Below the pieces are notes generated by a model. The model made no database searches. It was given only the letters and a program-made list of their open reading frames with translations, and had not been told where the DNA came from. A stretch of 64,000 nucleotides of DNA. Source: a virus. Its lineage: Duplodnaviria; Caudoviricetes. Below are positions 5,305 through 25,705 of the stretch, one piece after another. A program made the translations under genes and the position numbers. The stretch covers positions 1-64,000 of the IMG/VR virus record IMGVR_UViG_3300037067_015585. One strand, given 5' to 3'. How positions within the stretch are numbered: position 1 is the stretch's first letter; each line of letters begins with the position of its first letter.

Positions 5305-5678
5305 TACCAGTCTCCACCGGCACCACCACCGCCAAAATCGCCACCACCGCTATAATCGCTGCTGTCGTCGCTGCTGCTACTGTCACTACTGTCGTCGCTG
5401 CTGCCGCTTCCAAACACCGATCCAAATGATGAAGAATTGTCGTCGTCATCTTTGGAACTCTCAAAATCTGAGTCTTGATTGACAATTGCAGATGGATGAT
5501 GATAGTCCAATAGTCTTTGAATCTCTGGTTTCGAGTCGAAGTAGAATTTACCACGACCCCAGCTGCCATTTTTCTGCAAAAATAACTGTTCACTACCAGA
5601 TTTATTGGAACAATACCACTTATTCAGATACTGGATATCAACGCCAGTTCCAACTTGCAAAATCTGAACTCTGTCCAT
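5304..5678 (-). CDS. hypothetical protein with Ser/Asp-rich linker and TPM-type tail (GGGDFGGGGAGGDW)
   Basis: start MDRVQ with AAGGGA RBS; same Gly-rich tail as the adjacent TPM protein. Confidence 0.65.
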   Translation of the reverse strand: MDRVQILQVGTGVDIQYLNKWYCSNKSGSEQLFLQKNGSWGRGKFYFDSKPEIQRLLDYHHPSAIVNQDSDFESSKDDDDNSSSFGSVFGSGSSDDSSDSSSSDDSSDYSGGGDFGGGGAGGDW

Positions 5679-5700
5679 AATGTTTCCCTTATGTTGTAAG

Positions 5701-6477: not shown

Positions 6478-6483
6478 TTACTA

Positions 6484-7086
6484 CTAGAACTCCACTTTGG
6501 GTGCTGTTTTGGCTGCTTCGGCGGCTTCGAAATTCTCAGCCTTCTTGAAACCATGAACATTAGCTACAATTTGACTGAACAAACCACCACAAGTAATATT
6601 ATAGTCCTTGACGGCTTTGTTGTAACGATGACGAGCCTCGTTAATCCGATTCTCAGTGCCTTCTAACTGCGATTGCAAATCAAGGAAATTCTGATTGGCC
6701 TTCAAATCAGGATATTTTTCCTGGACAAGAAGCAATCGCGATAACGCCGACGACATTTCACCCTGAGCGGCAGCGAATTTCTTCATTTGCTCTGGACTAG
6801 TCGTAGCAGTATTGATGTTAACCTGGCCCACCTTGGCACGTGCTTCTGTCACGTCTTTGAAAACACTGTTCTCGTGTTTCGCATAGCCCTTCACGGCACT
6901 GACGAGGTTCGGAATCAGATCATATCGACGTTGGAGCGTCGATCCAACATCGGCGGCTTTCTCCTGGACCGTATAGAATCCGGTATTAAGACTGCTATAA
7001 GTACCCCACCAAGACAAACCACCAATAACAACGAACAACAGCGCTACACCCAATAGCCCCAACGCAACATACATACAACCCTTCAT
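6484..7086 (-). CDS. lemA: LemA family protein
   Basis: LQRRYDLIPNLV..VKGYA.HE and E.YPDLKANQNFL.LQ.QLEGTENRI..AR..YN signatures. Confidence 0.95.
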   Translation of the reverse strand: MKGCMYVALGLLGVALLFVVIGGLSWWGTYSSLNTGFYTVQEKAADVGSTLQRRYDLIPNLVSAVKGYAKHENSVFKDVTEARAKVGQVNINTATTSPEQMKKFAAAQGEMSSALSRLLLVQEKYPDLKANQNFLDLQSQLEGTENRINEARHRYNKAVKDYNITCGGLFSQIVANVHGFKKAENFEAAEAAKTAPKVEF

Positions 7087-7144
7087 AGCATACTCCTTGT
7101 ATAATGATTTACCTTCGGTTTATGTTACTGAAATACATAGATGC

Positions 7145-7942
7145 TCATTCGTCGTTTTTTGGCTTCTTCGGATTCTTACTGGTCTTTGCAATCCTTGCAC
7201 ATTCTTGAGCCATGAACGCCAATGGCAATCGGCTACTACTCTTCTTATTGTAAATCGATTCAATCATGTTTAAAAAGCCATCGATATTCGGCTTCAAATC
7301 ACGCATTGCGCGATTTACTTCGAAACGATGGAAGAATTGGTTGATATCGAATTCATCAACCAACAGCAACATGCGAATCGCAGTGACGAAAAGGGTGTTC
7401 GATGCATGATCGAACCCGGCAGCTTTGCATCGTTTGATAATATCAGCGATTTGCTGGGCATACTTCATTTTGGTAACAGTGAAGTCACCCCTCTTGAATT
7501 CTGACATGTCAGACTTGCCGGTCAAGATTGATACCGCACAACTTATAGTAACTCCGGTGTGGGTAACATAATCGGCGGCAATCTGATATTGCGCACTTTG
7601 TTTGTCGCCTAGACGGCAATATGACTCCAAATAGTCCCTCGTAGACCACGGGCGAGTTGCACCTTCCAATTCATGAATTGTTGCATTATCATTACAGATA
7701 ATATAAAAGACTGGTATACCCAATTCCTTAGCGGCAGTAAGCCGATGGTGTCCGGCTTTGATCTCAAGCTTGCCATGTGAATTCTTTGTGACATGTAATG
7801 GGTATGCTGGGATATACCCATGCTCACGCATCGATGCCATGAGCTTGTTAATTTTCGTAACGTCTCTGTTGAATTTCGATAATTCAAAGAGACCGTAATC
7901 TTTGGTTGCAGCGAGTTTCGGCGATAATGACTTCGGTTTCAT
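7145..7942 (-). CDS. ParB/Srx-like N-terminal domain protein
   Basis: NR.V...KL..SM...G...P..V....I.AGHHRL.AAKELG.PV..II motif. Confidence 0.8.
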   Translation of the reverse strand: MKPKSLSPKLAATKDYGLFELSKFNRDVTKINKLMASMREHGYIPAYPLHVTKNSHGKLEIKAGHHRLTAAKELGIPVFYIICNDNATIHELEGATRPWSTRDYLESYCRLGDKQSAQYQIAADYVTHTGVTISCAVSILTGKSDMSEFKRGDFTVTKMKYAQQIADIIKRCKAAGFDHASNTLFVTAIRMLLLVDEFDINQFFHRFEVNRAMRDLKPNIDGFLNMIESIYNKKSSSRLPLAFMAQECARIAKTSKNPKKPKNDE

Positions 7943-8421
7943 TTTCTATCCTTCCGGTTATTGTTAATCCATTTGACAACAATGTCAAATGCTTCATTCC
8001 TAAACTTATTATTCCTTGGTATTGGCTCCAGTTGTGTTATAGCACATCGTGCCGCCTGCATCGCATAATTTTGCGATTTTTTCCAATTAGTGTCAATTGG
8101 CGTATCGATATCAACCTCAGATGATGTGGTTGATCCTTTACCGTGTAATCTTGATCGAAACCTGTTGTGTTCAAAAAAAGCTGCGTTAGCTTCTTCGATT
8201 TGCGTCTCGGCATCAAGATTTGCAATCCGCGATGCACGCGTCGGAGACATACGGCCTTCATCGACGGCAGCAATTAGCTCTGGTGTACCGTTTTGTAATA
8301 TGTTCAAAGCGGCATGCAACAAGTTCGGTCGAGTTGGTGTACTATTCGGATCAATAAGACGCGCCCTACCATCAGCCAAAGCCATAGCACCAGTGTTGAT
8401 ATATGGACTATCGCTATTCAT
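7939..8421 (-). CDS. putative ParB-associated HTH-like DNA-binding protein
   Basis: GTPELIAAVDEGRMSPTRASRIA resembles the post-HTH segment of ParB-like proteins; ATGA-coupled to the ParB-like gene. Confidence 0.55.
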   Translation of the reverse strand: MNSDSPYINTGAMALADGRARLIDPNSTPTRPNLLHAALNILQNGTPELIAAVDEGRMSPTRASRIANLDAETQIEEANAAFFEHNRFRSRLHGKGSTTSSEVDIDTPIDTNWKKSQNYAMQAARCAITQLEPIPRNNKFRNEAFDIVVKWINNNRKDRK

Positions 8422-8520: not shown

Positions 8521-10587
8521 TTATTTCGTTACACCATTGTATGGCCCCACTAGTGACAACGCTTGCATTTTATTAATATTATTGGTATATAACCAATTTT
8601 CCTGCATTGCCGATATCTTGCCACGTAGTGCCTTTGGTGAGAAATCAAATTGTGCGCTCGGTCCATTATTAAATATTCTTGCATTAAATCCTGCCACCAT
8701 CGCACCAATTATAAATGCACCGTGTGAGATTGACTTATTGGGTGAATATGGTTCGACAAGACTTTTCAAAGCGAGACTCGGCTCACAAAAACTGTTAATT
8801 TTGTGTGTTTTGCGTACATCAGCAAGCAATTTTGCAATGAATTTTATGTCGTCTGCACTATTAATTAACATATCAGTGTCATTTTTTGTGCGTTCGTCAC
8901 CGAAGCCATCAATATTGAGTGTGGGATATTTAGTTAGGACTTCGCAGATTTGATTGAGCAGCTTCTCTCTAGCTTTCTGTTTTTGCTTTTCCGTTGTGAC
9001 TGTCTTAATTGATAGTCTACAACATCCAGTGAACATCTTTGTTAGTGATTTACGTATTTTTTGTGGTTTTCTTACGACTTCGTCGTAAAATTCAGCATTT
9101 AATCCACTAGATTCAGCGGTACTAATCAAGAGTTGCATCCAGCGTTTATATGTCTCGTTCTCCAAGATACTATTAGGTGCTATTATAAAATTCCAAACAA
9201 ACAATACCTGGCCAGAACGACCTGCTGCATCTATTACAAGTATGCATAAATCTTGCCAAAATCTGGTGTTAGAATCAGCCAAACAAATAATTGAATCGTA
9301 TGATATTACTGACGGTTTGTGCCATAATTGTTGTATATGTAGGAATTCTGTATCAGGATAGGCATGAGCACCACTAGGAATAGGCTTATTGAGCACACTA
9401 CGATCAACATTATTATATGAATTAGGTCCGAATTTTATGCCACCGTCGATAAGATGCTTGTGCTCGTGCCATTCTCTACCACCAAGAGTCCAAAATTCAC
9501 GATTAGCGGAAAATCTCGTTAAATCATAATATCGTAGTACTTCCAATAAATAATCTCGATATTTATTTAGACCCTTATAATGGTCTGGTCTATTATTAAT
9601 CCCTAACTCGCGATACCAAAACCAATCGCGAACTCCTTCTGTGAATTCGGCGTCATATTGTGGGCTTTTGCTGTCGGTGAATCTCCTCAAACTCCAATAT
9701 AGTCGATATTCTATTGGATCTTTCGCTGTCACATTTGGCCTATCAACACCAGCTCTAACCATCTCTAATAGCTTATCTTTTATCTTTCTTTGCTTTTCAT
9801 CTTTGGTTTCGAGCCACAATGGCGATATTTTTCTAAGTTTATCTATAAAAACAGCATCATAATGCTCGCTTTTGTGATTTGTAAATTTATGAAGTTCATG
9901 ACTAAGTTTTTTGTTTGTCGACGGAATTGGTTTATCTGCACCACTTTCCGCTAATTGTAAAAGTTGTACCTTATATTCATCTGGCGTTATTCGCTTGGAA
10001 AACCAACTCGGAGCAAGACTACTAATTTCTGCTTTGAAAACAGGATCATAATTGCTTTTAGAATTCTTGCTGCAATATAGACAAAGAGCGCTAGCCAAAA
10101 CAGACTCGTCATGGCTGGCACGTTTTTGTTTCGGCCTTGGTTTACCACTTTTCGCCAATTCTATTAACTTGTGTTTTTTGATTAATACAGAATCTTTAAA
10201 CCACCCAGGAGCAAGTTTACGAATTTTATTGGCAAACTGTTCGTCTCGGCCTGGGCCATTATTTACATAGTTATTGAATGACTGCCCAAGCCTGCGTTCA
10301 ATGATATCATTAGAAGTGCTGCTTGGTCTCGGTGCCCCAGCAGCAGCTAGTGCCAATAATCTCTCACGCCGACTACTGCGTTCATGCCTACTACTCTGTA
10401 AACTCTTCCGCTCTTTCCAGTCTGTAAACCAACCAGGCTGTATGGTACGAATCTCAACATCAAATTCGGCATCATATGAGCTACCTCTATGAGTATAATT
10501 ATGTAACGCCTGTGCAAGTTTTCGCTCATCGCGATTATTACTTTTTCTATTTGGTTTTTTTACTGGTAAATATTCTGATATCATCAT
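8521..10587 (-). CDS. repeat protein: SEYLPV leader + 5 PDWF-type repeats + putative methyltransferase-like domain + wHTH-like domain
   Basis: repeats end in PGWF/PSWF/PLWL/RDWF; EFWTLGG..EW.E / YNNVDR / VISYD domain shared with both helicases; C-terminus paralogous to 4367..4813. Confidence 0.8.
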   Translation of the reverse strand: MMISEYLPVKKPNRKSNNRDERKLAQALHNYTHRGSSYDAEFDVEIRTIQPGWFTDWKERKSLQSSRHERSSRRERLLALAAAGAPRPSSTSNDIIERRLGQSFNNYVNNGPGRDEQFANKIRKLAPGWFKDSVLIKKHKLIELAKSGKPRPKQKRASHDESVLASALCLYCSKNSKSNYDPVFKAEISSLAPSWFSKRITPDEYKVQLLQLAESGADKPIPSTNKKLSHELHKFTNHKSEHYDAVFIDKLRKISPLWLETKDEKQRKIKDKLLEMVRAGVDRPNVTAKDPIEYRLYWSLRRFTDSKSPQYDAEFTEGVRDWFWYRELGINNRPDHYKGLNKYRDYLLEVLRYYDLTRFSANREFWTLGGREWHEHKHLIDGGIKFGPNSYNNVDRSVLNKPIPSGAHAYPDTEFLHIQQLWHKPSVISYDSIICLADSNTRFWQDLCILVIDAAGRSGQVLFVWNFIIAPNSILENETYKRWMQLLISTAESSGLNAEFYDEVVRKPQKIRKSLTKMFTGCCRLSIKTVTTEKQKQKAREKLLNQICEVLTKYPTLNIDGFGDERTKNDTDMLINSADDIKFIAKLLADVRKTHKINSFCEPSLALKSLVEPYSPNKSISHGAFIIGAMVAGFNARIFNNGPSAQFDFSPKALRGKISAMQENWLYTNNINKMQALSLVGPYNGVTK

Positions 10588-10598
10588 ATCTCTCGATA

Positions 10599-11924
10599 TT
10601 AGCTTTGGAACCAGTCTGGGCGAATAACACGAATCTGTTTAGTGAAGTCAGGATCAAAATGTCTGCCGCAAGTGTAATACGCCAACGCATGCCCAAGCTT
10701 TTTCTCAGCCTGATTTACCGATCTTTTGTTTGGTCGATTTGATCCACAAATAGCCATATCAAATAATTTCGCTTTAACAGCAGTACTTGTTGATATGAAC
10801 CATTCTGGCCTGATTGTATGAATTTGTTTATCAAAATCTGGATCATATCTAGCGTGATTCTTGTCGATATAATAGCACAACGCTGAGCCTAGTTTTCCAG
10901 AGCGTCTGGTAGGTCTTTTAGCCCCGCTCTTCGCTAATGTTATCAAATTTGCTTTATTTCTCTCAATTGCGTTCGCAAACCAATCTGGTCGAATAACACG
11001 CAACTGTTTATCAAAATTAAAGTCATAAATCTTGCTACGCTTGTTTGTGCAATAATAAAAAGTGATCAACATCCTCTTCTCTTCCATATCATCTGTTATA
11101 TATCTTGGCTTATCGGCTCCACTCTTAGCCAATTCTAACAATTTCAATTTCCTGATGTCTTTAAGGACCTCGAACCAATCTGGACGCAAGATGTGAATAC
11201 GCCTCGAGAAATCACGATCATACCGCTTACCATTCTGAGTAAGAGCACCAAGCAAATAACTTAACTTCTTTTCTTCTAGATCTTTAGAATATCGATCCGG
11301 TTTCTTGGCACCGCTAGCAGCGAGTTTAAGTAGAACATCCTTACGTAAGGCTACCTTGTCTTCAAACCAATCTGGCCGTATAAGCTGGAGTCGCTTAGTA
11401 AAATCAAGATCATACCCAGTTCCACCTTTTACTGTATAATCGATAAATCTATCGTACAATCTTCTCTCTAGTATATCAGAATGTAATCCTACCCCAGGTC
11501 TCGGTTTTCCAGTCTTCGCAAGCTCTAATATTTTATTTTTGTTTATAGCAGATCGATCAAACCAATCAGGGCGAAGTGCTCGAATTCGTACACAAAAATC
11601 TTGATCACCGGATCGATGCTTGTCGGTATATCCCTTTAATGCTACAGCCAATCTTTTTTCTTCACGGTTCTTAGATGAGCTACTTGGCCTTTTAGCTCCA
11701 CTACCAGCAAGTTCCATCAACTTTTTCTTATTTTCAATAGGTGTTGGTATTATAGTGGTAAACCAACCAGGTTGCAAGACACGAATCTCAGCATTGAATT
11801 CTGAATCATAACTTCCACTAAATTTATAGGTATAGTTCCGAAGCAACCGTGCAAGTTTTCGTTCCTCGCGATTCTTGCTAGTAATGCTTGGCCGCTTTAT
11901 TGGAAGATATTCAGACATTATCAT
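10599..11924 (-). CDS. repeat-only protein: SEYLPI leader + 7 PDWF-type repeats
   Basis: seven units ending in [QR]P[GDE]WF; ATGA-coupled to the upstream helicase. Confidence 0.85.
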   Translation of the reverse strand: MIMSEYLPIKRPSITSKNREERKLARLLRNYTYKFSGSYDSEFNAEIRVLQPGWFTTIIPTPIENKKKLMELAGSGAKRPSSSSKNREEKRLAVALKGYTDKHRSGDQDFCVRIRALRPDWFDRSAINKNKILELAKTGKPRPGVGLHSDILERRLYDRFIDYTVKGGTGYDLDFTKRLQLIRPDWFEDKVALRKDVLLKLAASGAKKPDRYSKDLEEKKLSYLLGALTQNGKRYDRDFSRRIHILRPDWFEVLKDIRKLKLLELAKSGADKPRYITDDMEEKRMLITFYYCTNKRSKIYDFNFDKQLRVIRPDWFANAIERNKANLITLAKSGAKRPTRRSGKLGSALCYYIDKNHARYDPDFDKQIHTIRPEWFISTSTAVKAKLFDMAICGSNRPNKRSVNQAEKKLGHALAYYTCGRHFDPDFTKQIRVIRPDWFQS

Positions 11925-14900
11925 CCAACTTTCAGTACCGAGTCGATTCTAGTTAGTTTGCAACATCCAGCAAGCATTGGTGTCTTTGATGTTGGTCGCT
12001 TAGTAATCTGCCCTTCTCCATAGAAATCAGCCTCCAATCCTTCTGATTCAGCAAATCCGTCTAGTAACTGTAGCCATTGATGATAAACACCCCTTTTGAT
12101 CGGATCATATCTAGTGTGTATTGTGTAGCCTTCCATAAAATTCCAAAAAAACAAGACACATCCAGACTTCTTGGCAGCGGTAATAGCAAGATAACACAAT
12201 TCCTGCCAATATCCAGTGCGAGATTTAACCATACCGATTGTCGCGTCATAGCTAATAACGCGTGGGTTTTTCCATTTACTCCATAAATCTTGGATAGATA
12301 AGAACTCGCGGTTCGGATGAGCACAAACTCCTTCTGGTGCCTTGTCGATTACACCTCTGTCAACATTATGATAAGCATCACGCCCAAATTTAATGCCAGC
12401 ATTAACAAGATGCTTAAGTTCATACCATTCACAACCACCAAGAGTCCAGAATTCATTATCGTAGAATTCGGTGAAGCCATAATAATTCAGAGCTTTAACT
12501 AAGAACTCGCGATATTCATTTTTACCGGCATACTTGCCACGCTGTGGCTTCTTACTGCGTGTAAACCAATCTGGACGAAGAAATCGGATCTGCCTATCAA
12601 AAGCCGAATCGTACAATCCACTGGGGCGATTAATATATTGGCTAAGAGCACTCCCAAGGCTTTTTTCCTCTAGATTTTTCGAACTCTGTTTTGGTTTTTT
12701 GGCTCCGCTCTTTGCCAATTCTAGTAATTTGGCTTTTTTTATGTCTGCTGTATTTTCGAACCAATCTGGACGAAACTCTCGGATTTGTTTGTCAAAAACG
12801 TGATCGTAACTTCCAATTTTTCCAATTTTTTGTATAGTATAATTGGTTAATGCAACTCCCAATTTTCTTTCTTCCAAATCTTTTGCGTGCTGGTTTGGGC
12901 GTTTTTCACCAGCTTCTGCTAACAACATTAACATATTCTTTTTTAGTATTGTTGTATCTTCAAACCAGTCTGGTCGAATGGAACGTATTTTGGTATCAAA
13001 AACAGGATCGTAAGTATCACTACTTTTGGTAGTGTAATCCGTTAGTGTGACTCCCAATTTCCTCTCTTCCAGATCTTTTGCGTGCTGGTTTGGGCGTTTG
13101 ATTCCGATCATGTTTGCTAATTCTATTAATTTCGTTTTATTTGTATTAGTGGTATCTTCAAACCAGTCTGGTCGAATGGAACGTATTTTGGTATCAAAAA
13201 CAGGATCGTAAGTACCATCAACTGTAGTATAATTGGTTAATGCAACTCCCAATTTTCTTTCTTCCAAATCTTTTGCGTGCTGGTTTGGGCGTTTTTCACC
13301 AGCTTCTGCTAACAACATTAACATATTCTTTTTTAGTTTCGAAGTTTTCTCGAACCATCTCGGACTAATAGAACGAATCTTGGTATCAAAATCAGAATCA
13401 TGTGAACAACTATTTTTGTTAGTATAATTGCACAACGCTCTACCGAGACGTTCTTCGGTGCGATCTCTACTACTGTTATTCGGCCTTTTTCCTCCACTTT
13501 TCGCCAATGCAATAAGTTTTCTTTTGTTTTCTCTTGCTGAATTTGCGTTGAATTTAAATAATAACTTCTCGACTTCATCGAAATTACTCATTCCGTTGAT
13601 GATCCCAAAAATATCTGTGATACCAATCACTTTCAGTTTTTTGATTTCCTCTTTGATCTCCGGATCATTCATAAACTCACTGAAAGACATCTTACTAAGT
13701 CGCCGATCGCGTTTACGAATAATATCTTCAAGCGCCTTACGATCATTCTTGGGGATGACTTCATTCTGCATCAATATGCTGATAGCTAAAATGGGGCTTA
13801 CCTCGATACCGCGTTTGGCATGAAGATCGTGGAATAATTTTATCAACTCATCAGCAGATGCACCAGAGGCTGATTCTCGCAAGACTCGTTGAAGAACATC
13901 ATTGTTCTCCAACATATTCACCTTTAATCTGAATTGTTCTCTTTCTTTGTCAACTACTGCACGATATCGCTGCGGTACCGTTAACATAAATGTGTCGGTA
14001 AAATCTAGACCACTACAGATAGCCTTAATTCTTATAGCAACCTGTAAATTGGCATTTTTGACCACATCCTGATCTTCGTCATCAAGACTAACCTCAAAGA
14101 TGACGACCCTAGATAGATTGGGCGACGGATGGTTTGGGCAATTTCTCTTTGATCGTAAAGCACGTCCCATACATCGCTGTACAAATCGCTGTAGAGAACC
14201 AGTTAATCGTGGGTTGAAGGTTTGGGCACATTCGACCCAATCCATACCCTCATCAAAAAGTTTGATGGCTATGATAATATCATAGCCTCTTGAAGAATTT
14301 GCCAGATCAGCGAGCCTATCGGAATGTACTTTCTTCCTGTTTGAAATAAGTATATCGCCGTCGTCTGATCCAAAATTGAGCACTCTAGCATCCTTGCATT
14401 TGTTTTGTAGAATTAGCTTAAGTGCAAATGCCTGCTTGGCACTATCGACATACATGATTGTCGGAAGCGGTTTCTTTTTATATTCATCGACGTATGCTTT
14501 TAATAATTCTGGGTAATTCATTGCGTCCAGGAGTTCTGGCTTATCAGATATATCATCGGTCTTCGACAATTGATCAAAATCTACCCTATTAACGGCATGA
14601 TAAAATCGCAGAAATACGCCGAAATCAGGGCAGCATCCCTCGTGGTGATGATCTTTCAACAGTCGTCTAAATCTAACAAACTCCTCTGACGTCGGCTGCC
14701 CTCCGTCACTACGGAAGTCTGTCGCCGTGAAAGCATGAACCTCAGAGCACCTGCTAACGCAATCTTTAAGAATAGAACCAAGAGAGTTTTCGTCCTTCAT
14801 ATCACTGTGATGGACTTCATCAACAAGCAAGACTACATTAGATAAGTCGATTGTTTTGTCTTTAAGAGCCAGTTTAAATGCTCGATAACTTGAGATGCGA

Positions 14901-15349
14901 ATAATTGCACTATTATATCTCAAAAAATCCTTCATCTCTTTCGATTTATGAGCATCACTTTCATAAATCGAACCCTTCTTTATTGTATATCTTGCTATTT
15001 CTTTGGCGTCTTTGTCTATTCCATCTTTCTCGATAGCACACCAGTCGCAGTCCTTGACATATTTTGTGAAATTATAATTAATACCAAGCTGCGGCGTTAT
15101 GATGACAACTTTCTTGTATTGTTTGACAGACGCAGCATAACATAGCATTATGGCCGTCTTACCACTGCCTGTCGGCGATTCGGTTATCGTGTAACGATTG
15201 CTCTTGATGTGATCGAGCATTCGTCTCTGATATTCCAGAAGTTCTATTGTAGATTTATTAACCTCCTTATCAACAATGACAGGCACAATAGACTTGATTT
15301 TGATGCCACCGGCAAGTATGCTCTCTCGGACAGTGATAGTTTTATTCAT
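11921..15349 (-). CDS. SF2 (type III Res/SSL2-like) helicase + 5 PDWF-type repeats + putative methyltransferase-like C-terminal domain
   Basis: ESPTGSGKT, LLVDEVHH, FTATDFR, LFDEGMD, QRCMGRALR motifs, followed by repeats and the EFWTLGG domain. Confidence 0.85.
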   Translation of the reverse strand: MNKTITVRESILAGGIKIKSIVPVIVDKEVNKSTIELLEYQRRMLDHIKSNRYTITESPTGSGKTAIMLCYAASVKQYKKVVIITPQLGINYNFTKYVKDCDWCAIEKDGIDKDAKEIARYTIKKGSIYESDAHKSKEMKDFLRYNSAIIRISSYRAFKLALKDKTIDLSNVVLLVDEVHHSDMKDENSLGSILKDCVSRCSEVHAFTATDFRSDGGQPTSEEFVRFRRLLKDHHHEGCCPDFGVFLRFYHAVNRVDFDQLSKTDDISDKPELLDAMNYPELLKAYVDEYKKKPLPTIMYVDSAKQAFALKLILQNKCKDARVLNFGSDDGDILISNRKKVHSDRLADLANSSRGYDIIIAIKLFDEGMDWVECAQTFNPRLTGSLQRFVQRCMGRALRSKRNCPNHPSPNLSRVVIFEVSLDDEDQDVVKNANLQVAIRIKAICSGLDFTDTFMLTVPQRYRAVVDKEREQFRLKVNMLENNDVLQRVLRESASGASADELIKLFHDLHAKRGIEVSPILAISILMQNEVIPKNDRKALEDIIRKRDRRLSKMSFSEFMNDPEIKEEIKKLKVIGITDIFGIINGMSNFDEVEKLLFKFNANSARENKRKLIALAKSGGKRPNNSSRDRTEERLGRALCNYTNKNSCSHDSDFDTKIRSISPRWFEKTSKLKKNMLMLLAEAGEKRPNQHAKDLEERKLGVALTNYTTVDGTYDPVFDTKIRSIRPDWFEDTTNTNKTKLIELANMIGIKRPNQHAKDLEERKLGVTLTDYTTKSSDTYDPVFDTKIRSIRPDWFEDTTILKKNMLMLLAEAGEKRPNQHAKDLEERKLGVALTNYTIQKIGKIGSYDHVFDKQIREFRPDWFENTADIKKAKLLELAKSGAKKPKQSSKNLEEKSLGSALSQYINRPSGLYDSAFDRQIRFLRPDWFTRSKKPQRGKYAGKNEYREFLVKALNYYGFTEFYDNEFWTLGGCEWYELKHLVNAGIKFGRDAYHNVDRGVIDKAPEGVCAHPNREFLSIQDLWSKWKNPRVISYDATIGMVKSRTGYWQELCYLAITAAKKSGCVLFFWNFMEGYTIHTRYDPIKRGVYHQWLQLLDGFAESEGLEADFYGEGQITKRPTSKTPMLAGCCKLTRIDSVLKVG
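12835..13337. repeat. exact intragenic DNA duplications: 113 bp (12835-12947 = 13225-13337) and 63 bp (12954-13016 = 13152-13214)
   Basis: nucleotide-identical segments read directly; offsets 390 and 198 are in frame. Confidence 0.9.
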
Positions 15350-15354
15350 GATTG

Positions 15355-15422
15355 GTTATAACGTGAAACTGTGTTGATGTTAATTTGCAGCTGGTCATAG
15401 CACGAAATGATATAAATGTTAA
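15355..15422 (-). promoter_or_regulatory. tandem promoters TTAACA-N17-TATGAC (15394-15422) and TTAACA-N17-TATAAC (15355-15383)
   Basis: duplicated ATGTTAATTTGC 12-mer; CGTGC before the distal -10; proximal -10 lies 5 nt from the ATG. Confidence 0.55.
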
Positions 15423-16816
15423 TTTGCGAAAGGGCCTTTTTTGCGTATAGGGAACCAGTCTGGTCTGAGCTCTGAAATTTTCTTATCGAATGCCGCATCA
15501 TATTGCTTGCAGTAGCCACTGGTATATGAATATAATAACGCGCTAAGTTTACGTAATTCAGGACATTTTTGCGATCTCGAAGGCTTATCTTTGCCGCTCC
15601 TAGCCATATTCAACAGTTTATCTTTATTGATCGATGAACTAGCTATAGACCGCTTACCTTTTTGAATATTAATTGTGTTCTTAAACCAATTTGAATTTAT
15701 AGAGAGAATCTGCTCATAAAACTTTTGATTAGTTAAATTCTTTCTTCCAAATGGAGATGTATAACTAATCAATGCTTGGCCAAGTTTACTTTCTTCTTGG
15801 TTCGCCGAAAATGAGTTTGGGCGTTTTGCACCATTTCTTGCCAATTCCAGTAATCTAAATCTTTTATTATCGGCATCTTTCATAAACCATTCTGGTCTAA
15901 TTGAACGAATCTTGTCAGCTACGGAGCCACCACAAGATAAACGATTAGATAATGCTCTACCAAGCCGTCTCTCTTCTGCGTTTTTAGACCTCCTGTTTGG
16001 TCTTCTACCACCATTTTCAGCCCAGTTTAATAACGCTTCATCAATAAGTTTGGCTGTATTCCATTCTGGTCGAATCGCAAAGATCTTCTTAGTAAACGCA
16101 TCATCATATTGTTTGTTTGGATTAGTATATCTATTTAATGCTTGGCCTAAACGTGCAACCTCACGATTAGTAGAACATGAGTTTGGTCTGGTCGCTCCGG
16201 CTTTTGCTAATTCAAGGAGTTTTTCTTTCTTTAATACTGATCGCTTTTCTATCCAATCTGGACGCAAAGCGATCAGTTGTTGTTTGAAAATCGCATCATA
16301 CTGTTGCCGTTTTTCGGCAAAATAACACACCAATGCACTTCCTAGTCGTCTTTCCTCGGGATCTCGCGATTTTCCGCTCGGCCTTTTCTTGCCAGTAGCA
16401 GCCCATTCTAATATTTGGGCTTTGTTAGCTGCCGCCGTGTCTTTGAACCACTGTGGCGCAGCTGATTTAATCGCATCGCAAAAAGCAGAATCGTATTTGT
16501 GTCCATTGCGTTTTCTTAGATAATCATTAAGTATTCCAGCTAATCTCTTTTCCTCAACATTTACTGAACTGATACTTGGCCTATTATTACCACTTCTTGC
16601 CAGTTCCAACAATTTACGCTTATTTTCTCTAACTGCACTTGCGTTTTTATTGAACCAATCTGGCTGTAGAAGACGAATTTCGCCGTCGAATGCAGCGTCA
16701 TACCATTTACTATTCTTGCTAGTCAGAATATATAATGCACGTGCAAGTCTTCGCTCATCGCGACTTTTGCTGCTGAGGCTTGGTCGTTGCACTGGTAGGT
16801 ACTCAGATTCAATCAT
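15419..16816 (-). CDS. repeat-only protein: SEYLPV leader + 7 PDWF-type repeats
   Basis: repeat consensus; TAATG coupling to the upstream gene. Confidence 0.85.
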   Translation of the reverse strand: MIESEYLPVQRPSLSSKSRDERRLARALYILTSKNSKWYDAAFDGEIRLLQPDWFNKNASAVRENKRKLLELARSGNNRPSISSVNVEEKRLAGILNDYLRKRNGHKYDSAFCDAIKSAAPQWFKDTAAANKAQILEWAATGKKRPSGKSRDPEERRLGSALVCYFAEKRQQYDAIFKQQLIALRPDWIEKRSVLKKEKLLELAKAGATRPNSCSTNREVARLGQALNRYTNPNKQYDDAFTKKIFAIRPEWNTAKLIDEALLNWAENGGRRPNRRSKNAEERRLGRALSNRLSCGGSVADKIRSIRPEWFMKDADNKRFRLLELARNGAKRPNSFSANQEESKLGQALISYTSPFGRKNLTNQKFYEQILSINSNWFKNTINIQKGKRSIASSSINKDKLLNMARSGKDKPSRSQKCPELRKLSALLYSYTSGYCKQYDAAFDKKISELRPDWFPIRKKGPFAN

Positions 16817-18129
16817 TATTTATGCTTAAACCAGTCTGGACGAATACTACGAAGTTTCGCATCAAATTCAGGATCATATCGGCGATCGCTCTTTTTTGCG
16901 TAGCTATGGATTGCGTTATATAGAGCATGTGACTTATTTGGTTTCACTTCTCCGTTTTTGGCCATTTCAAGCAATTTTTGTTTTTTAGCAGCCACTTTAC
17001 CAAACCAATCTGGTCGTAGTGCATAGATCTCTTTATAAAATTCTGGATCATAACAAGACAAATTGACTTTTTTGTTAGTATATGTTATAAAAGCTCCACC
17101 AAGTTTGTTAGTTGGTCTTTTAGATCCACTTTTCGCTAATTCTAGTAATTTTTGCTTATTTTTACACACTCTATCGTGTGCTCTACCAAACCAGTCGGGT
17201 CGAAGCCTACGTATTTCTACTGCGAATTCGTGATTCCTGCTTACATATGCTTTCAGAGCTTCACCCAAACGCCGTATGTGAAGGTTTTTAGATCCGGCAT
17301 TTGGCCTGTCATCACCATCCCTAGCCATTTTCAATAGTTCTTGTCTTTTGGCTTCCGCCACAGTCAATGTATCAAACCAATCAGGTCGTATTTTACGAAT
17401 CTCAATATCAAATTTCAGATCATAGCTTAAGCATTGCTTGTATGTATATCTGGATAATTCTGCTGCATAACGTTTTTCAGAAGCTTCCCAAATTCTCGGC
17501 TTTCTCTTTCCACTACGAGCCATTTCAAGCAATTTTTGTTTTTTTGGTATTGTTGGATCTTCATATACATACCAATCTGGGCGAAGTTCCCGAATTTTTC
17601 TGGTGAATTCGGGATGGTGTTTCTCGTAATTACGTAATGCCGCACCGAGACGTTTTATGTCTACATCTTTCGATTTTTTAGGATCTTCGCCGCCACTTCT
17701 AGCTATCTTCATTATCATTCGCATATTCTCTTGTACATTTCTTATTGTACGACAAGAACGCCAACGCGGCTGCAAAGCAAAAATCTCCGCAGCGAATTCT
17801 GCGTCGTAGTTTTTATTAGGTGCAGTATGTCTATATAATATGCCTGCAAGGCACCTTTCATCTACGTTCTTTGATGATATACTCGGCCTTTTTTCTCCAT
17901 TCTTGGCCATCTCAAGCAATTTTCGCTTGCTTTCGTTTATGTCGATCTTAGAATTAGTGTTAGGCTTCCATTGTGGTTGAATAGCAAAGATTTCAGTAGC
18001 AAAGCTTTCATCATAACTTCCACTTCCAGGTGTAGTATATCTGCGCAATGCTTCTGCGGAATGACGCTCACAACAATTCTTACTATCACGGCTTGGCTTT
18101 TTTACTGGTAAATATTCAGTCTTAATCAT
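16816..18129 (-). CDS. repeat-only protein: TEYLPV leader + 7 PDWF-type repeats
   Basis: repeat consensus; ATGA coupling to the upstream gene. Confidence 0.85.
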   Translation of the reverse strand: MIKTEYLPVKKPSRDSKNCCERHSAEALRRYTTPGSGSYDESFATEIFAIQPQWKPNTNSKIDINESKRKLLEMAKNGEKRPSISSKNVDERCLAGILYRHTAPNKNYDAEFAAEIFALQPRWRSCRTIRNVQENMRMIMKIARSGGEDPKKSKDVDIKRLGAALRNYEKHHPEFTRKIRELRPDWYVYEDPTIPKKQKLLEMARSGKRKPRIWEASEKRYAAELSRYTYKQCLSYDLKFDIEIRKIRPDWFDTLTVAEAKRQELLKMARDGDDRPNAGSKNLHIRRLGEALKAYVSRNHEFAVEIRRLRPDWFGRAHDRVCKNKQKLLELAKSGSKRPTNKLGGAFITYTNKKVNLSCYDPEFYKEIYALRPDWFGKVAAKKQKLLEMAKNGEVKPNKSHALYNAIHSYAKKSDRRYDPEFDAKLRSIRPDWFKHK

Positions 18130-18602
18130 TTGTTAAACCAGTCTGGTCTTAGGGCACGAATCTTAGCATCAAACTTATCATCGTATGTCTTTCGACTTTT
18201 GTTTGTGTAATTGATCAATGCACGACCAAGATGATGCTTCGCGCTATTTGGCCGCGAAGAACCAGTTAAAGCCATTGCGAGCAGCTTTTGTTTTTTAACT
18301 GCTGCCATATCATCAAACCAATCCGGCCTTAATTTGCGGATTTCTGCGTCAAATTCAGAATCATAGCTGCCAGCATTTGAATAACGTTTTAATGCCGTCC
18401 CAAGAGTCTCGTTTTTACCAGGCCGCTTTTCTCCATTTGCGGCCATACACAATAAACGACATTTATTTTCAACAGCAGATTTACCAATACCTGTTTCGAT
18501 CATTTCGACCGACACACCACTAGTACGGAGTTGTTCAATCAAATTCTTTTGATAATCTGTTAACATATTACATTCTTCTATTTTGATTATTTCTTGAACC
18601 AA
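18126..18602 (-). CDS. short protein with 2 PDWF-type repeats (start probably MLTDYQ at 18566)
   Basis: two repeat units; N-terminus MLTDYQ...IETGIGKS resembles a truncated helicase Q-motif/Walker A. Confidence 0.75.
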   Translation of the reverse strand: MVQEIIKIEECNMLTDYQKNLIEQLRTSGVSVEMIETGIGKSAVENKCRLLCMAANGEKRPGKNETLGTALKRYSNAGSYDSEFDAEIRKLRPDWFDDMAAVKKQKLLAMALTGSSRPNSAKHHLGRALINYTNKSRKTYDDKFDAKIRALRPDWFNK

Positions 18603-19084
18603 TCAGATCGCATGGTGCGTACTTTCTTATCGAAATTCGCATCGTAATCCTTACACCTTTTGTCAGTAAATCTGATCAATGCACGTCCAAGATATTGTTC
18701 CTTGACGGCAGCATCATAAACTTCTTCGGCTAATTTGCGTTCCTTGGCCGAAGAAGTTTGAAGTGGATTCTTTTTATAATAGTTCCATTTCCTGCTGTTT
18801 GGTCGTGCAGATCCATCAGCCGCCATCTTCATCAATTCTTTTTTAATCACCGAAGCAGTCTTTGGTTTGGAACCGCCAAACCAATCTGGCCTCAAAAAAC
18901 GAATTTCCCTGTTAAAATTGACGTCGTATGGGCTGTTGCATCGGCAGTATCGTAGTAACGCCAGTTTAAACTCGTTCTTCTTTCTTGGCCTATCGGCCCC
19001 ATCTTTTGCAAGTTCGAGAAGCTTCTGCTTGTTCTGCTTTATAACGTTCTGGTCGTGCGGTTCTGGCTTCTTTTTCTTTGACAT
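18587..19084 (-). CDS. short protein with 2 PDWF-type repeats
   Basis: two repeat units; AAAGGGA RBS; first gene after the consensus promoter. Confidence 0.8.
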   Translation of the reverse strand: MSKKKKPEPHDQNVIKQNKQKLLELAKDGADRPRKKNEFKLALLRYCRCNSPYDVNFNREIRFLRPDWFGGSKPKTASVIKKELMKMAADGSARPNSRKWNYYKKNPLQTSSAKERKLAEEVYDAAVKEQYLGRALIRFTDKRCKDYDANFDKKVRTMRSDWFKK

Positions 19085-19105
19085 TTCATATCCCTTTATA
19101 AGTTA

Positions 19106-19133
19106 AATGCACCGGGGACGTCCCCGGTGCATT
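19106..19133. promoter_or_regulatory. perfect 28-bp GC-rich palindrome AATGCACCGGGGACGTCCCCGGTGCATT (operator or 5' hairpin)
   Basis: exact self-reverse-complement; overlaps the predicted TSS of the 19136-19164 promoter. Confidence 0.75.
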
Positions 19134-19135
19134 CC

Positions 19136-19164
19136 ATTATAACACGGCGAAAAATTGCTGTCAA
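19136..19164 (-). promoter_or_regulatory. consensus sigma70 promoter TTGACA-N17-TATAAT with extended -10 TG
   Basis: perfect consensus, intergenic, upstream of 18587..19084. Confidence 0.85.
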
Positions 19165-19197
19165 TACCACTAATGGGGTATTATATATCTAGTCCAT

Positions 19198-20439
19198 TTA
19201 AGCCTTCTGTAACTGCCTGTTAAACCACTCAGGACTAAGTGCACGAATTTCGACGTCGAAATCTAGATCATAACATTCGCTACTTTTTGATGTGTAGCTT
19301 GCCAAAGCCCAAAGAAGACGCTTTTCTGCTATATCTCCCGACCTACTTGGCTTTTTGACTCCTGATTTAGCCATTTCTAATAGTCTCTGTTTCTTTAAAG
19401 CCGTTTTTTCGAACCAATCAGGGCGAAGTGTGCGAATTTCGGCGTCGAATTCTGGATCATATTGCGTTTTGTTACTGTTTGTGTAGCGTGCAATAGCAGT
19501 GCCTAAATTTGTTAATTTACAAGATGGTCTCTCTTCTCCTTTTCTTGCCATTTCTAGTAATTTTTGTTTCTTTAAAGCAGACGAAGTTCTAAACATTGAG
19601 CCGTCTGGCTTTCTAATAAAAGTTTCGAACCAATCAGGGCGAAGTGTGCGAATTTCGGCGTCGAATTCTGGATCATAACTAGTTCGCGCATGACCACTAC
19701 GTGTATAGTTTTTCAATGCTATCGCAAGACGTGATTCTGATATTTCTAAAGGGCTTGATGGATGGTTAAAATTAGTTGGTCTTCCCTCTCCATTCCTAGC
19801 CATTTCTAATAGCTTTTGTTTTTTTGCTGCTACCATCTGCTTTTTTACTATTGTTGTTACAGAATTTTCAAACCAATCGTGGCGAAGTTTATGAACCTCT
19901 ATATCGAATTCTAGATCATAACAACTACTATTCTTATTAATACTGCGACTCAACACTCTATTTAAATGCTCTTCTGATTTCTCGTTTGGCTTTTTATCTC
20001 CATTCTTAGCCATTTCCAGTATTTTTTGTTTTTTTACAGCTGTTAAATTTGGTTTTGCAGCCCATTCTGGCCGTATTTCGCGAATCTGTCTATCAAATTC
20101 TGGATCATAGCTACTACTGTTTTTATGTATATAGCAGCACAACGCACCAGCAAGTTTTCTTTCCAAAACTTCTGACGGCCCAGATGGATGTGAAAGATTA
20201 AGCGGTTTTCTGGCTCCACTCTTAGCCATTTCTAATAGCTTTCGCTTTATAGGCGCTGATTTAATACGGCGAGCAAGCCAATGTGGTTGTAAAGCTAGAA
20301 TTTCCGCAGTAAATTCGACATCATAGCTTACACTATTCTCTGTAGTATATCTGCGTAACGATTCTGCAAGTTTTCGCTCTTTGTGGCTACTGCTGTTACG
20401 GCTTGGTCGTTTTACTGGCAAATATTCAGATTCTACCAT
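19198..20439 (-). CDS. repeat-only protein: SEYLPV leader + 6 PDWF-type repeats
   Basis: start MVESEYLPV at 20439; repeat consensus. Confidence 0.85.
   Translation of the reverse strand: MVESEYLPVKRPSRNSSSHKERKLAESLRRYTTENSVSYDVEFTAEILALQPHWLARRIKSAPIKRKLLEMAKSGARKPLNLSHPSGPSEVLERKLAGALCCYIHKNSSSYDPEFDRQIREIRPEWAAKPNLTAVKKQKILEMAKNGDKKPNEKSEEHLNRVLSRSINKNSSCYDLEFDIEVHKLRHDWFENSVTTIVKKQMVAAKKQKLLEMARNGEGRPTNFNHPSSPLEISESRLAIALKNYTRSGHARTSYDPEFDAEIRTLRPDWFETFIRKPDGSMFRTSSALKKQKLLEMARKGEERPSCKLTNLGTAIARYTNSNKTQYDPEFDAEIRTLRPDWFEKTALKKQRLLEMAKSGVKKPSRSGDIAEKRLLWALASYTSKSSECYDLDFDVEIRALSPEWFNRQLQKA
19407..19677. repeat. exact 55-bp intragenic duplication (19407-19461 = 19623-19677) encoding YDPEFDAEIRTLRPDWFE
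   Basis: nucleotide identity; offset 216 is in frame. Confidence 0.9.
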
Positions 20440-20461
20440 ATAATAAATCGTTGGCAAAGTA

Positions 20462-21262
20462 TTATGTATCTAAACCACTTGTAGCGGCAAGATCTAAACC
20501 GAGAGCCTCCTTATACGATTCTTTCCATCGCACTTTTGGCTCATTACTTAATTCAATGTAAACCTTTTTAACTGATTTATGAGTCTGGCCGTCCCTGATA
20601 CGTTTTATTTCTTCCTTTGATACTCCACTAACCCTCTTGCTAATCCGATTCATCTTTCCAATCCAAATGGAATCAGTCACAAAAGGCTCTATGATATCAA
20701 ATAGTTTTCGGACGTTTTCAACGTCAAGAAGAGGCTCACAGCTAATGCTTGTGGCGTAACCAGCCTCATGTGCAAATCGTAGTGATTTGAGCCGTTCCTT
20801 AAAATTTGGTGCGTCTGGTTCCCATATGCTCAAAATTCGATCATCCATACTACCTATACTAAACCGAAACAAGATTTTCTTGTGAAAAATCTCGAATCGA
20901 TTACAAATGCTTTTGATGCATTTTAGATGTGGCTTACTCACAATCAGTATCTCGTTGCCAGCCATCAGCAATTTCTCAATCACTTTCAAGCACGAATCAA
21001 GTACGTTTGGTGTAATGTCATGAGCAGTCGGAAACATAATGCGACCACCAGCAATCAATTTCCTATTTTTAGAAACTTCACCTATGCGAATGATAGGAGT
21101 TTTCCAGTCGCCCGCCGATTTGATTCGTCGAAATCGTATAGCTTGTGCTCTAGCATAGCAATAACGGCAATCATGCTCACATCCAGTCATACAATTCACA
21201 GATGCAACTGACCATTCCCTAGTTCCACTTATGCGTGTCTTCTCGTCATTTTGTTTAGCCAT
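20462..21262 (-). CDS. radical SAM protein (DUF5131/Gp37-Gp68- or SPL-like)
   Basis: N.MTGCEHDCRYCYA (CxxxCxxC), WEP.AP...ER, S.EP.L, WIGKMN; TAATG-coupled to the helicase stop. Confidence 0.8.
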   Translation of the reverse strand: MAKQNDEKTRISGTREWSVASVNCMTGCEHDCRYCYARAQAIRFRRIKSAGDWKTPIIRIGEVSKNRKLIAGGRIMFPTAHDITPNVLDSCLKVIEKLLMAGNEILIVSKPHLKCIKSICNRFEIFHKKILFRFSIGSMDDRILSIWEPDAPNFKERLKSLRFAHEAGYATSISCEPLLDVENVRKLFDIIEPFVTDSIWIGKMNRISKRVSGVSKEEIKRIRDGQTHKSVKKVYIELSNEPKVRWKESYKEALGLDLAATSGLDT

Positions 21263-24200
21263 TAAGCTGTTTTCTGTGCTGCTTGCACTAATGTGAGCTT
21301 GCAACATCCAGCAAGCATCGGTGTGTGTGATTTTTTACGTTGTGTGATTTGCCCGTCTTTGTAAAAATCAACTGAGATACCACTATGTTCAGCCAAATCT
21401 TCCATTATTTGTATCCAATTGTCATATAAATCTGTGTCTATTGTATTATACATCTTATTGGCGTATCCAACCATAAAATTCCAAACAATCAGCGCATTTC
21501 CTGATTTCTTTGCTGCAGATATACCGAGGTGGCATAGCTCTTGCCAAATACCAGTATTGGATTGAACTAAAGCGACGGTACTATCATACGATATGACGGC
21601 TGGCTTATTCCACAATCGATGAATATCAGAAAATTCTGTATTTGGATGGTGACATACAGATATATCTAATAATTCTTTCAATTCTTCTCGATCAACATTA
21701 TGATATGAAGTCGGTTTGAATGATATACCAGTCTTCACCAAATATCGGTATTCATGCCATTCCGATCCACCAAGAGTCCAAAATTCATGATCTGTTGTGA
21801 ATTTTGTGAATTTATAATAATTCAATACTTCCAACAAGAAATCGCGATATTTATTTGGACCAGCGTATCGATCACCATTCTTTCTATAAATAAACCAATC
21901 TGGTCGAAGTTCGTGGATTTGCCTATCAAATCCAATATCATAACATCGATGTTGCGGATCTGTATAATGATATAATGATCTCCCAAGGCTTGTGTGGGAT
22001 AATGGTCGTCTCGAATCTGTTTTAGCGAGCGACAAAAGCTCCGATTTTCTATTTATAACAGCACCAAACCAAGATGGTGCAAGCTTATTGATCTCATCAC
22101 AAAAAGCCTGGTCATAATAAGGGCCTTCGCTATTTGAAAAGCGGCAAAACCATATTGCAAGAGTCCTCATCTTGCGATCGTGAGAGGTCTTTCTAGGTTG
22201 TTCTGATTTATTTTTAGCAATCTGTAGTAATTCTCGTTTCTTCTTTCTGGCGACATTAATAGATCTACTATCGAACCAGTCTGGACGCAGCTTCTTGAGT
22301 TCATTATGAAATTCTAGATTATATCCACGATTGTTCTTATTAATATAGCTACTTAGAGCCATGCCGAGAGGTGTATTTTGACACGGCCTATCACCGCCAT
22401 CTCTAGCTATTTTTATAATTTTCTTTCTTTTATCCGGTGCATAATTAACGAACCATTGTGGAGCAATAACACGCAACTCTTTATCAATCCAAGGAATATG
22501 CTTATGCATCAGCATCGCCATACTTTTCTCTTCTTGGTTGCGCATACTAGGCTTATTTAGGCCAGATTTGGCTCTATCTATTAGCTTCTTACCGGTTTCT
22601 TCGATCGTTTTGACGAACCACCGAGGCGCAAGAGTTCTAATTTTATGATCAAAGTCAGGATCATATATTTTGTTTTTTGGATTAGTATAACTTCCGAGCG
22701 CAACGGCTAATGCATTTCTGTGCTTGTGATTAGTTGTCGGACGTTTTTCACCATTGCGAGCCATCTCTAACAATCTATCCTTCTTTTCGATTGCTGTATT
22801 TATAAACCACGCAGGGGCTGCAAGGCGAATCTCATGCATAAAATCTTGATTAATTCGACAATAATTATTCATTACAACAGCCAGCCGACGCATGTTGGCG
22901 TCATCAGACCCAGTACTAGGACGCTCAGCACCGCTGTAAGCTAGTCGTAGCAGCTCTTTTCTATTCTCTTCTGCAGAGTCAACGAACCAATGTGGTGCCA
23001 AAAAACGTACCTTCTCAGTAAAATCTCGATCGTAAGTGTTAGCTTTTGGATCGATATAACGGCAAAACTTTGCCCACAATCGTTTTTCCTCGTCAGTAGA
23101 ATGCCAATTGTTATTGTTAGTTGGTCGGCGTATTCCACGCTTAGCCATAGACAATAATTTTTTCTTGTTTTCTAATGCTGTATTAATAAACCATTGTGGG
23201 GCTAAACGTCGTACTTTCTTGTCGAAAATAGATCCACGATGTGTCGAATTTGTGAATTTCGATAGCACAGATGCTAATGCACGTATATGGGTGTCATCAC
23301 TATTTTGTAATGGTCGTTCACCGCCACTTCTCGCCAAATCAATAATCTCATGTTTTTTCTTTGCCAGCTTATCTTCAAACCACGACGGTGCCATAGCGTG
23401 AATTTTTATATCAAATTCATGATCGTATGTATTGGAATGCACACAAGTATAATTTACTAATGCAGTTGCAAGTCGGCGTTCCTCAGAATCTGGATTATTG
23501 ATGTGCTTGTTTGACGGTCTATCTGCACCGTTCTTAGCCAAAATAAATAATTGCTCTTTATTGTGATCTGCTGAATTTCTAGTATAATCAACCAGCATCC
23601 TCGCTATTACATCGAGGTCATTCCGACCACTGAGAATTCCAACAAAATCAGAAACACCAATTACTCTAAGCTTAGCAATTTCTTCTGCGTATTCTGCGAC
23701 GAATCCAGCGAACGATCTTATTTCAAGATTCTTATCTCGAAGTCTTATGGCCTCTTTGAGATCGATCACATCAGCTTTGTCGATTACACCAGTTTGCATC
23801 AGCAATCCTGTAACAACATCACCGCTAAGTTCGATTCCTTTTGAAGCATATAAATCGTGACACAAAATTATCAATTCTGCGGCAGACGCACCTGTTGTTG
23901 CTTTATATAGAAGCTTCTGTAAAATTTCGGTATTAATAGATACATTCGATTTTGTTCTCAATCTGGTTCGTTCAGATTCAAACCTGTGCCGATGCTTTCC
24001 TGGCAGTTCTAATATGAAAGTATCGGTGAAATCGAGGCCCTCACATATCGCCTTCAAGACGATAGCCATTGGTAGGAATGCCTTCGTAACTTCATCTCTG
24101 TCATGATCATTCAAACTGATTTCAAATATTACGACTCTTGAGTAAAACGGCGACACATGTAATTTCCGTTTTCGCCGTAGTGTCCGTCCTATGCACCTTT

Positions 24201-25329: not shown

Positions 25330-25370
25330 CCCATCACAGAGGTATAAACGAATATAAACTCAGACCGTCT

Positions 25371-25703: not shown

Positions 25704-25705
25704 TT

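Follow-up and report, generated by a model that had tools for sequence, protein, structure and literature searches.

A stretch of 64 kb of DNA, which was the first 64 kb of the 234-kb T4-like phage record IMGVR_UViG_3300037067_015585 (hereafter the window), contained a cluster of minus-strand genes for proteins with a repeated unit. The phage encoded a T4-like major head protein, a portal, a large terminase, and a baseplate wedge. The cluster was composed of nine back-to-back open reading frames (ORFs) at 8521-25329, and their products were mostly made of the one repeat. With a hidden Markov model (HMM) of the unit built from 37 seed units, 50 units were found in the nine ORFs at per-unit E values of 1e-13 to 1e-30, and the repeat described in an earlier note on this DNA was therefore real and far beyond chance. 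When the whole record was searched in six frames (alignment A1), 51 unit matches were obtained, all at 9619-28870 of the window, and the one further unit, at 28688-28870 on the minus strand, belonged to a tenth repeat gene. The unit of ~55-72 amino acids (aa) was thus present in 51 copies in ten minus-strand genes. The repeat exceeded the interval 10599-20439, since it also occurred in the ORFs 8521-10587 and 21262-25329 and as one unit in 28601-29158.

Four of the genes encoded array-only proteins with a half-unit start and products of 413-465 aa, as assigned by the unit HMM. The 441-aa protein (10599-11924, also modeled by AlphaFold2; 439 aa if started at the ATG at 11918) and the 465-aa protein (15419-16816) each contained an SEYLP half-unit and six units, and the 437-aa protein (16816-18129) contained a half-unit with the leader MIKTEYLPVKKP and six units. 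The 419-aa ORF at 19198-20457 contained a half-unit and five units. Its start was likely the ATG at 20439, which gives 413 aa from MVESEYLP, and the database protein P0024 is also 413 aa long. The 688-aa protein (8521-10587) began with an N-terminal half-unit (leader MMISEYLPVKKP...) and had four full units; the half-unit and units covered residues 9-323 and were followed by a C-terminal domain of ~210 aa and a tail of ~150 aa. Two short proteins of 158 aa (18126-18602) and 165 aa (18587-19084) had two units each. The former carried a 39-aa non-repeat head, and the second unit of the latter had an insertion of ~25 aa in the loop between helix 1 and helix 2. In the 185-aa product of the tenth gene (28601-29158), a single unit (residues ~97-157, E 7.7e-23) followed an unrelated head.

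The remaining two genes encoded fusions to a superfamily 2 (SF2) helicase, as assigned by Pfam and the unit HMM. The 1142-aa protein (11921-15349) was composed of a ResIII/DEAD region (residues ~35-400), five units (residues 602-929), and the C-terminal domain (residues 930-1142). The 1355-aa protein (21262-25329) contained an SF2 helicase, nine units (residues 584-1146), and the C-terminal domain (residues 1147-1355). Units 2-4 of the 1142-aa protein were young mosaic duplicates, the youngest in the locus, with a proportion of synonymous differences (pS) of 0.30-0.39. Their recent duplication was indicated by a tandem DNA array at 12835-13399 inside the gene, with a period of 195 bp, 2.9 copies, and a 78% match (Tandem Repeats Finder). 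No tblastn match to the 1142-aa fusion was found in the phage collection.

The sole sizeable gap in the cluster was located upstream of the gene 18587-19084. Within this gap, the minus-strand sequence at 19136-19164 matched the sigma-70 consensus perfectly (TTGACA, 17 nt, TATAAT, preceded by TG), and it was the only 12/12 site within 18 kb.

Fold, conservation, and charge of the unit

The lone unit was modeled by AlphaFold2 with a predicted local distance difference test (pLDDT) score of 91.7 and a predicted template modeling (pTM) score of 0.73. The model had helices at alignment columns ~4-17, 33-42, and 50-59, and a short turn at RPDW. In the model of the seven-unit protein 10599-11924 (pLDDT 92.8, pTM 0.58), each unit again had three helices. 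The unit was predicted with confidence to be a self-contained three-helix bundle; within the modeled array, the units were well defined and their mutual arrangement was less certain. When both models were compared with the PDB by Foldseek, neither the seven-unit nor the one-unit model matched at E <= 0.001. Rows of ARM, HEAT, and importin proteins were rejected, with template modeling (TM) scores of ~0.1 and E > 0.01.

Per-column entropy, which the earlier note had put forward as a check, revealed a conserved scaffold and variable exposed positions. The scaffold had been claimed to be highly conserved, and low entropy was indeed found at K8, L11, L12, A15, G18, R/K21, P22, L34, L38, Y41, Y49, D50, F53, I57, P62, W64, and F65. 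The conserved hydrophobic columns were spaced i, i+3/4, i+7 (L11/L12/A15, L34/L38/Y41, and F53/I57/L60), and residues L11, L12, A15, L34, L38, Y41, F53, I57, W64, and F65 would form the hydrophobic core. The other conserved elements were the turn G18..R/K21-P22, the helix-3 cap Y49-D50, and the motif P62-x-W64-F65. The conserved basic residues were K7/K8, R/K21, R/K58, and R61. These constant residues would contact nucleic acid independently of its sequence.

Entropy of more than 3 bits was found at columns 3, 5, 6, 9, 24, 25, 29, 36, 39, 40, 43, 45, 47, 48, 51, 55, and 59. Variation had been reported for the helix after ER.L (GRALCNYT, GVALTNYT, GSALSQYI, AGILNDYL, GSALVCYF, GQALNRYT, GTAIARYT, and GHALAYYT) and for the loop after RP (NQHAKD, SSSSKN, GVGLHSD, and TNFNHPSS), and all of these strings were present in the minus-strand translations. 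Both regions were variable as described; however, the variation was not confined to them, and all exposed faces of the unit varied. The units were 55-72 aa long, except for one unit of 90 aa, with insertions and deletions in both loops, and the mean column identity among units was ~37%. The 50 window units and a set of 1,068 units, drawn from 215 proteins encoded in other genomes, had matching entropy profiles (r = 0.95). Because the two profiles agree, the positions that had been called hypervariable were the generally unconstrained positions of the family and were not peculiar to this locus.

The units were also strongly basic, as the earlier note had stated. The mean net charge was +4.6 per unit, 47 of the 50 units were positive, and the array proteins had isoelectric points of 9.3-10.2.

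The family elsewhere and the helicase-associated domain

When 1.84 billion representative proteins were searched with a profile, 1,423 representative clusters (defined at 50% identity) matched the repeat at E <= 1e-3, and 494 matched at E <= 1e-30. Nearly all of the family members found by a word-indexed search were unnamed metagenomic proteins, many of them on contigs of 190-480 kb. The number of units per protein ranged from 2 to 13 and was most commonly 4-8 (215 proteins). Almost all members of at least 600 aa had a head of 410-640 aa followed by a C-terminal array. The head contained ResIII, DEAD, or Helicase_C in eight of the nine long relatives scanned, in agreement with precomputed Pfam hits. 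Arrays usually either followed an SF2 helicase or made up the protein by themselves. In addition, the protein P0086 had a GIY-YIG nuclease followed by three units, which were placed like a DNA-binding tail.

When whole proteins and single units were searched, the repeat was without a Pfam or NCBIfam model, and the PDB sequence search gave nothing for it. Sub-threshold rows of BRCT, HTH_Tnp_IS1, SopB, and Noc were treated as chance. The phage family phrog_13199 of PHROGs, with 77 positions, spanned unit boundaries in three window proteins (E 1e-11 to 5e-6); it is unannotated, covers only part of one unit and its neighbor, and adds no function. The repeat is an uncatalogued family, which occurs mainly in large phages and metagenomic contigs.

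The nearest known kind was the helicase-associated (HA) domain, PF03457. Both occurred as tandem arrays located C-terminal to SF2 (ResIII/DEAD) helicases; for the repeat, these were the window ORFs 11921-15349 and 21262-25329 and the long relatives. Both units were ~60-70 aa long and had, in the same order, a helix 1, a G..P element, an LG-helix 2, and a helix 3 that ended in an aromatic residue (W/F). Tandem arrays of HA itself were represented by a canonical 12-unit array in G069, and HA arrays on SF2 helicases by Streptomyces TtrA. The relative P0077 bears the NCBI name 'helicase associated domain-containing', and its first 40 residues were a canonical HA helix 2-3 half; the HA match in P0077 and other relatives was confined to N-terminal half-units. 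A second cluster of array genes, with four consecutive ORFs, was located at 4942-8349 of the contig JALNVE010000020.1 from a metagenome-assembled genome of Paludibacteraceae, and two of the four ORFs began with a canonical HA half-unit followed by window-type units.

The comparisons beyond sequence profiles led to the same domain. The three best language-model feature neighbors in the ESM Atlas were viral HA clusters, with scores of 0.86-0.87 and 178-189 shared features, and the ESM Atlas structure neighbors were helicase and HA arrays. In a Foldseek search of BFVD, arrays of giant-virus SF2 helicases matched with an E value of 4.9e-7 and a probability of 1.00, and two named HA-domain proteins were found further down with a probability of 0.92. 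When the nuclear magnetic resonance (NMR) structure of an HA domain, 2kta, was compared with the lone unit by VIA-align, 60 of 60 residues were aligned with a root-mean-square deviation of 3.4, a Z score of 3.6, and rank 17. Few chains were aligned along the full length of the unit, and 2kta was one of them. In the search with the seven-unit model, 2kta was aligned over 66 residues with a Z score of 3.9 and rank 11. According to its PDB title, 2kta is a domain of the Bacteroides vulgatus protein A6KY75. In the literature, HA is regarded as a probable DNA binder. The 2kta paper names the construct BVU_0683(627-691), and its title reports DNA binding by the HA domain (reference 64 of PMC12191111). 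Furthermore, the tandem HA domains of TtrA and the telomeric TniQ have been discussed as possible DNA binders (bioRxiv 10.1101/2024.11.13.623437).

From the observed repeat, predicted fold, conservation profile, charge, family size, and fusion partners, DNA binding and a tether role were inferred. The explanation favored here, with little better than even confidence, is that the repeat is a nucleic-acid-binding HA-like three-helix module, and that the arrays are multivalent tethers for DNA enzymes and free-standing DNA-binding proteins. Each unit would make a weak contact, mainly through charge and the backbone or shape of the nucleic acid, and a chain of 2-13 units would sum these contacts as a multivalent nucleic-acid tether. 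In the helicase fusions, whether or not they carry the rare C-terminal domain, the array would keep the SF2 motor bound to DNA or bring it there, and the array-only paralogues would bind the same polymer by themselves. The earlier proposal of a modular nucleic-acid-binding element is retained to this extent, on the grounds of the basic charge, the SF2 helicase and GIY-YIG fusions, the HA neighbors, and the variable helix-2 face; the recognition code attached to it is not.

Several results weigh against this explanation. The Z scores of 3.6-3.9 for 2kta were within the noise of three-helix bundles, and the top Z scores in the same lists were only 4.3-4.5. When alignments of the unit (44 and 1,062 sequences) were compared with a canonical HA alignment by hhalign, the probability was 0.2-0.5% with E values of 0.13-0.35; the HA alignment was small, with 18 units from Bacteroidales genomes. 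HMMER cross-searches of the repeat and HA gave E > 0.4 in both directions. In addition, o8521 (8521-10587) and its collinear ortholog P0043 kept 10 of the 20 outer residues of helix 2 unit by unit, much as elsewhere in the units, a hint that the surfaces have functions specific to each unit.

The Pfam HA model, with a gathering score of 28.4 bits, had no match in the ten window proteins at E <= 0.1, nor in 44 single units or the whole phage record at E <= 10. The signatures of the two also differed, with KKxKLLELA, RP, YD..F, and RPDWF in the repeat and W...L..F, vP, LG.W..QR, and L..lGF.W in HA. Because several leads point to HA but the formal sequence-profile tests fail, the repeat is regarded as a sister family, uncatalogued so far, that resembles HA in its position and shape, and not as a demonstrated HA member.

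The arrays might instead be protein-binding scaffolds or decoys, for example in counter-defense against host factors, with surfaces shaped by an arms race and no binding of nucleic acid. Such a role would suit the many array-only paralogues in a phage accessory region, the fast-evolving surfaces, the lack of collinearity of arrays between phages, and the weak Foldseek resemblance to ARM/HEAT scaffolds. It is judged unlikely, since the recurrent fusion partners were DNA enzymes (SF2 helicase and GIY-YIG nuclease), the units were uniformly basic, the nearest neighbors were HA arrays, and the ARM/HEAT matches were at the level of TM ~0.1 and E > 0.01.

In the architecture of these proteins, the repeat stands in for the helicase-borne HA domain, and naming the family would annotate many 'hypothetical' phage proteins. 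The 51 units in ten genes of one locus were an unusual expansion, which included two fusions of helicase, array, and C-terminal domain by radical SAM and ParB-like genes. The locus is suited to testing what HA-type arrays do.

Leader, C-terminal domain, and neighboring genes

Five array genes opened with the common leader M-x-x-S/T-E-Y-L-P-V-K/Q-K/R-P. The leader and half-unit sites, assigned by the unit HMM on the minus strand, were 10426-10587, 11760-11924, 16652-16816, 17965-18129, and 20275-20439. The half-unit corresponded to the loop, helix 2, and helix 3 of the unit (HMM positions 20-65), with helix 1 absent. The window-type leader was present in 13 of the 215 family proteins from elsewhere, and a canonical HA helix 2-3 half filled the same N-terminal slot in 11 others of the 215. 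Still other relatives had short heads such as 'ML..WQ...L...GW..F'. The array-only genes were also considered as fragments of a broken helicase gene, that is, as pseudogenes. This was rejected because five of the genes share the conserved start, which recurs in other phages, and all of them stop just past a complete unit.

A conserved leader on very basic proteins could also mark the array-only products as packaged internal proteins, which would accompany the genome or coat it, both inside the capsid and during injection, with the leader as a targeting or processing signal. The T4 internal proteins are very basic, the phage has T4-like head genes, and the leader is both common to five paralogues and found again in the 13 proteins of other phages. 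However, the leader was simply a unit reduced to its loop, helix 2, and helix 3, the heads of other members were quite different, and the same units were present on the helicase fusions. The 'internal virion protein' rows from BFVD were weak, with E values of 0.04-0.2 and TM ~0.1. A role as internal proteins is therefore considered quite improbable.

The C-terminal domain of ~210 aa was present in three copies on the minus strand, at 11921-12562, 21262-21891, and 8521-9618, which were 47-53% identical (alignment A3). The copies shared the motifs FWTLGG..EW.E, NVDR, ISYD, WNF, and GCC.L. The domain had no Pfam match and no PDB sequence or profile match, and it was rare elsewhere, with 2 of the 215 family proteins containing it. 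Its language-model neighbors were unnamed phage clusters, and methyltransferase clusters appeared only at ranks 39-100. A methyltransferase-like nature of the domain is taken as a lead only.

The minus-strand gene at 20462-21307 encoded a radical SAM protein of 281 aa, SplB/PA0069-like in kind. This gene was flanked by two repeat genes and overlapped the end of the gene for the 1355-aa helicase fusion. It was assigned from Pfam, NCBIfam, and phrog_13321. The Pfam Radical_SAM score was 23 bits, under the cut-off. The best NCBIfam rows were 'radical SAM mobile pair protein B' and PA0069, with an E value of 3e-10 and well under the cut-offs, and the weaker rows were those of spore-photoproduct-lyase.

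A ParB-like gene at 7145-7942 adjoined the cluster. Two genes that are unusual cargo in a phage were found just downstream of the locus, at 5701-7086: one of the LemA family (E 2e-56), and one with a TPM domain and an N-terminal methylation motif.

Elsewhere in the window, a 603-aa protein encoded at 30513-32324 combined several helix-turn-helix (HTH) motifs, a NUMOD3 motif, and a Mom-family domain (Pfam PF25680, E 6e-20), and a nucleotide-sugar epimerase was encoded at 36567-37508. The presence of the Mom-family protein and the epimerase suggests that the phage modifies its own DNA.

Base reading and comparison with modular repeats

The earlier note had taken the combination of a fixed scaffold and variable positions as a sign of a code like that of transcription activator-like effectors (TALEs) or zinc fingers. 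In such a modular and potentially programmable code, bases would be read by the helix-2 outer face (columns 36, 39, 40, and 43) and the loop between helix 1 and helix 2, and each array would address a long, distinct site. The pattern was found to be non-discriminating, because every exposed face varies. Any repeat family is expected to combine a conserved core with a variable surface, and this combination is therefore not evidence for a TALE-like code.

The helix-2 outer face was the most variable helical surface, with a modest contrast to the other faces. Between units, the mean proportion of nonsynonymous differences (pN) was 0.66 for this face, 0.55 for the outer face of helix 1, 0.56 for that of helix 3, and 0.16 for the scaffold. 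When units were compared with their best match from outside the genome, the helix-2 face had an identity of 0.27 and the other faces 0.42 and 0.39. The family-wide entropy at the four columns was 3.4-3.9 bits, and the positions were rich in R, S, N, K, and Q. This contrast and composition would fit a code, as would the independence of the units, which are joined by short linkers like zinc fingers, the ten differing arrays in a single genome, and the helix-2 residues kept unit by unit between o8521 and P0043.

However, the variation at these positions did not have the form of a code. No restricted alphabet was found, with 49 distinct four-residue helix-2 combinations in the 50 window units. Mutual information revealed no mutual coupling among the helix-2 positions, and the strongest real pair was columns 61-63, with RPD and APH variants. 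Couplings of column 25 were set aside as a small-sample artifact, because this column was filled in only about one-fifth of the units. Furthermore, the unit length was irregular (55-90 aa), with insertions and deletions in both loops.

The ratio of nonsynonymous to synonymous substitution rates (dN/dS), which had been suggested as a further check, was unusable across units because synonymous sites were saturated, with pS > 0.6 in 95% of the unit pairs. It could be applied to the young duplicates, units 2-4 of the 1142-aa protein, for which dN/dS was 0.33-0.39. No positive selection was detected in these duplicates, and the other unit pairs were mostly saturated in dS. The arrays were not collinear with those of relatives, except for the pair o8521 and P0043. 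Because this pair keeps half of the exposed helix-2 residues, it suggests that the surfaces in general are under unit-specific constraint, for whatever ligand, rather than in free drift. The surface variation would mostly reflect that exposed residues are constrained weakly, or differently from unit to unit, in an old array that has undergone repeated duplication and shuffling; it would not represent a discrete code.

No multi-unit match to a solved solenoid (TALE, PUF, PPR, or ARM) was found by Foldseek or exhaustive VIA-align, and the good VIA alignments mostly covered one unit. None of the evidence specifically supports base reading by the repeat. Taken with the varied faces, the irregular units, and the lack of collinearity and positive selection, a modular code is considered very improbable. 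If it were true, the repeat would be a fourth natural modular scaffold for nucleic-acid recognition beside zinc fingers, TALEs, and PUF/PPR repeats, with hundreds of arrays elsewhere. If the arrays proved sequence-specific, they would be relevant to genome-targeting tools; the present evidence makes such specificity unlikely.

TALE units are 33-35 aa long and near-identical, concentrate their variation in two residues that draw on a small alphabet, and stack into a continuous superhelix. The phage repeat resembled the Xanthomonas TALE in having tandem helical modules on DNA-related proteins, with a conserved scaffold and some variable positions. Unlike TALE units, the phage units were 55-90 aa long, ~37% identical, and variable on all surfaces, and they were predicted to fold independently.

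The likeness to C2H2 zinc fingers and Myb/SANT repeats was in the small, independently folded tandem modules with short linkers, each with a short helix whose variable residues are polar. Three-helix bundles, of ~52 aa, are also formed by Myb repeats. Unlike C2H2 and Myb repeats, the phage repeat had no metal ligands (no Cys2His2 pattern), no Myb tryptophan pattern, and no conserved linker, and no C2H2 zinc-finger or Myb-SANT Pfam match was found in the window proteins or single units. A sharp contrast between 'specificity' positions and other exposed positions was also absent. Since the units are predicted to be self-contained domains, the arrays would resemble beads on a short string, as in zinc-finger and Myb proteins, and not the superhelix of TALEs.

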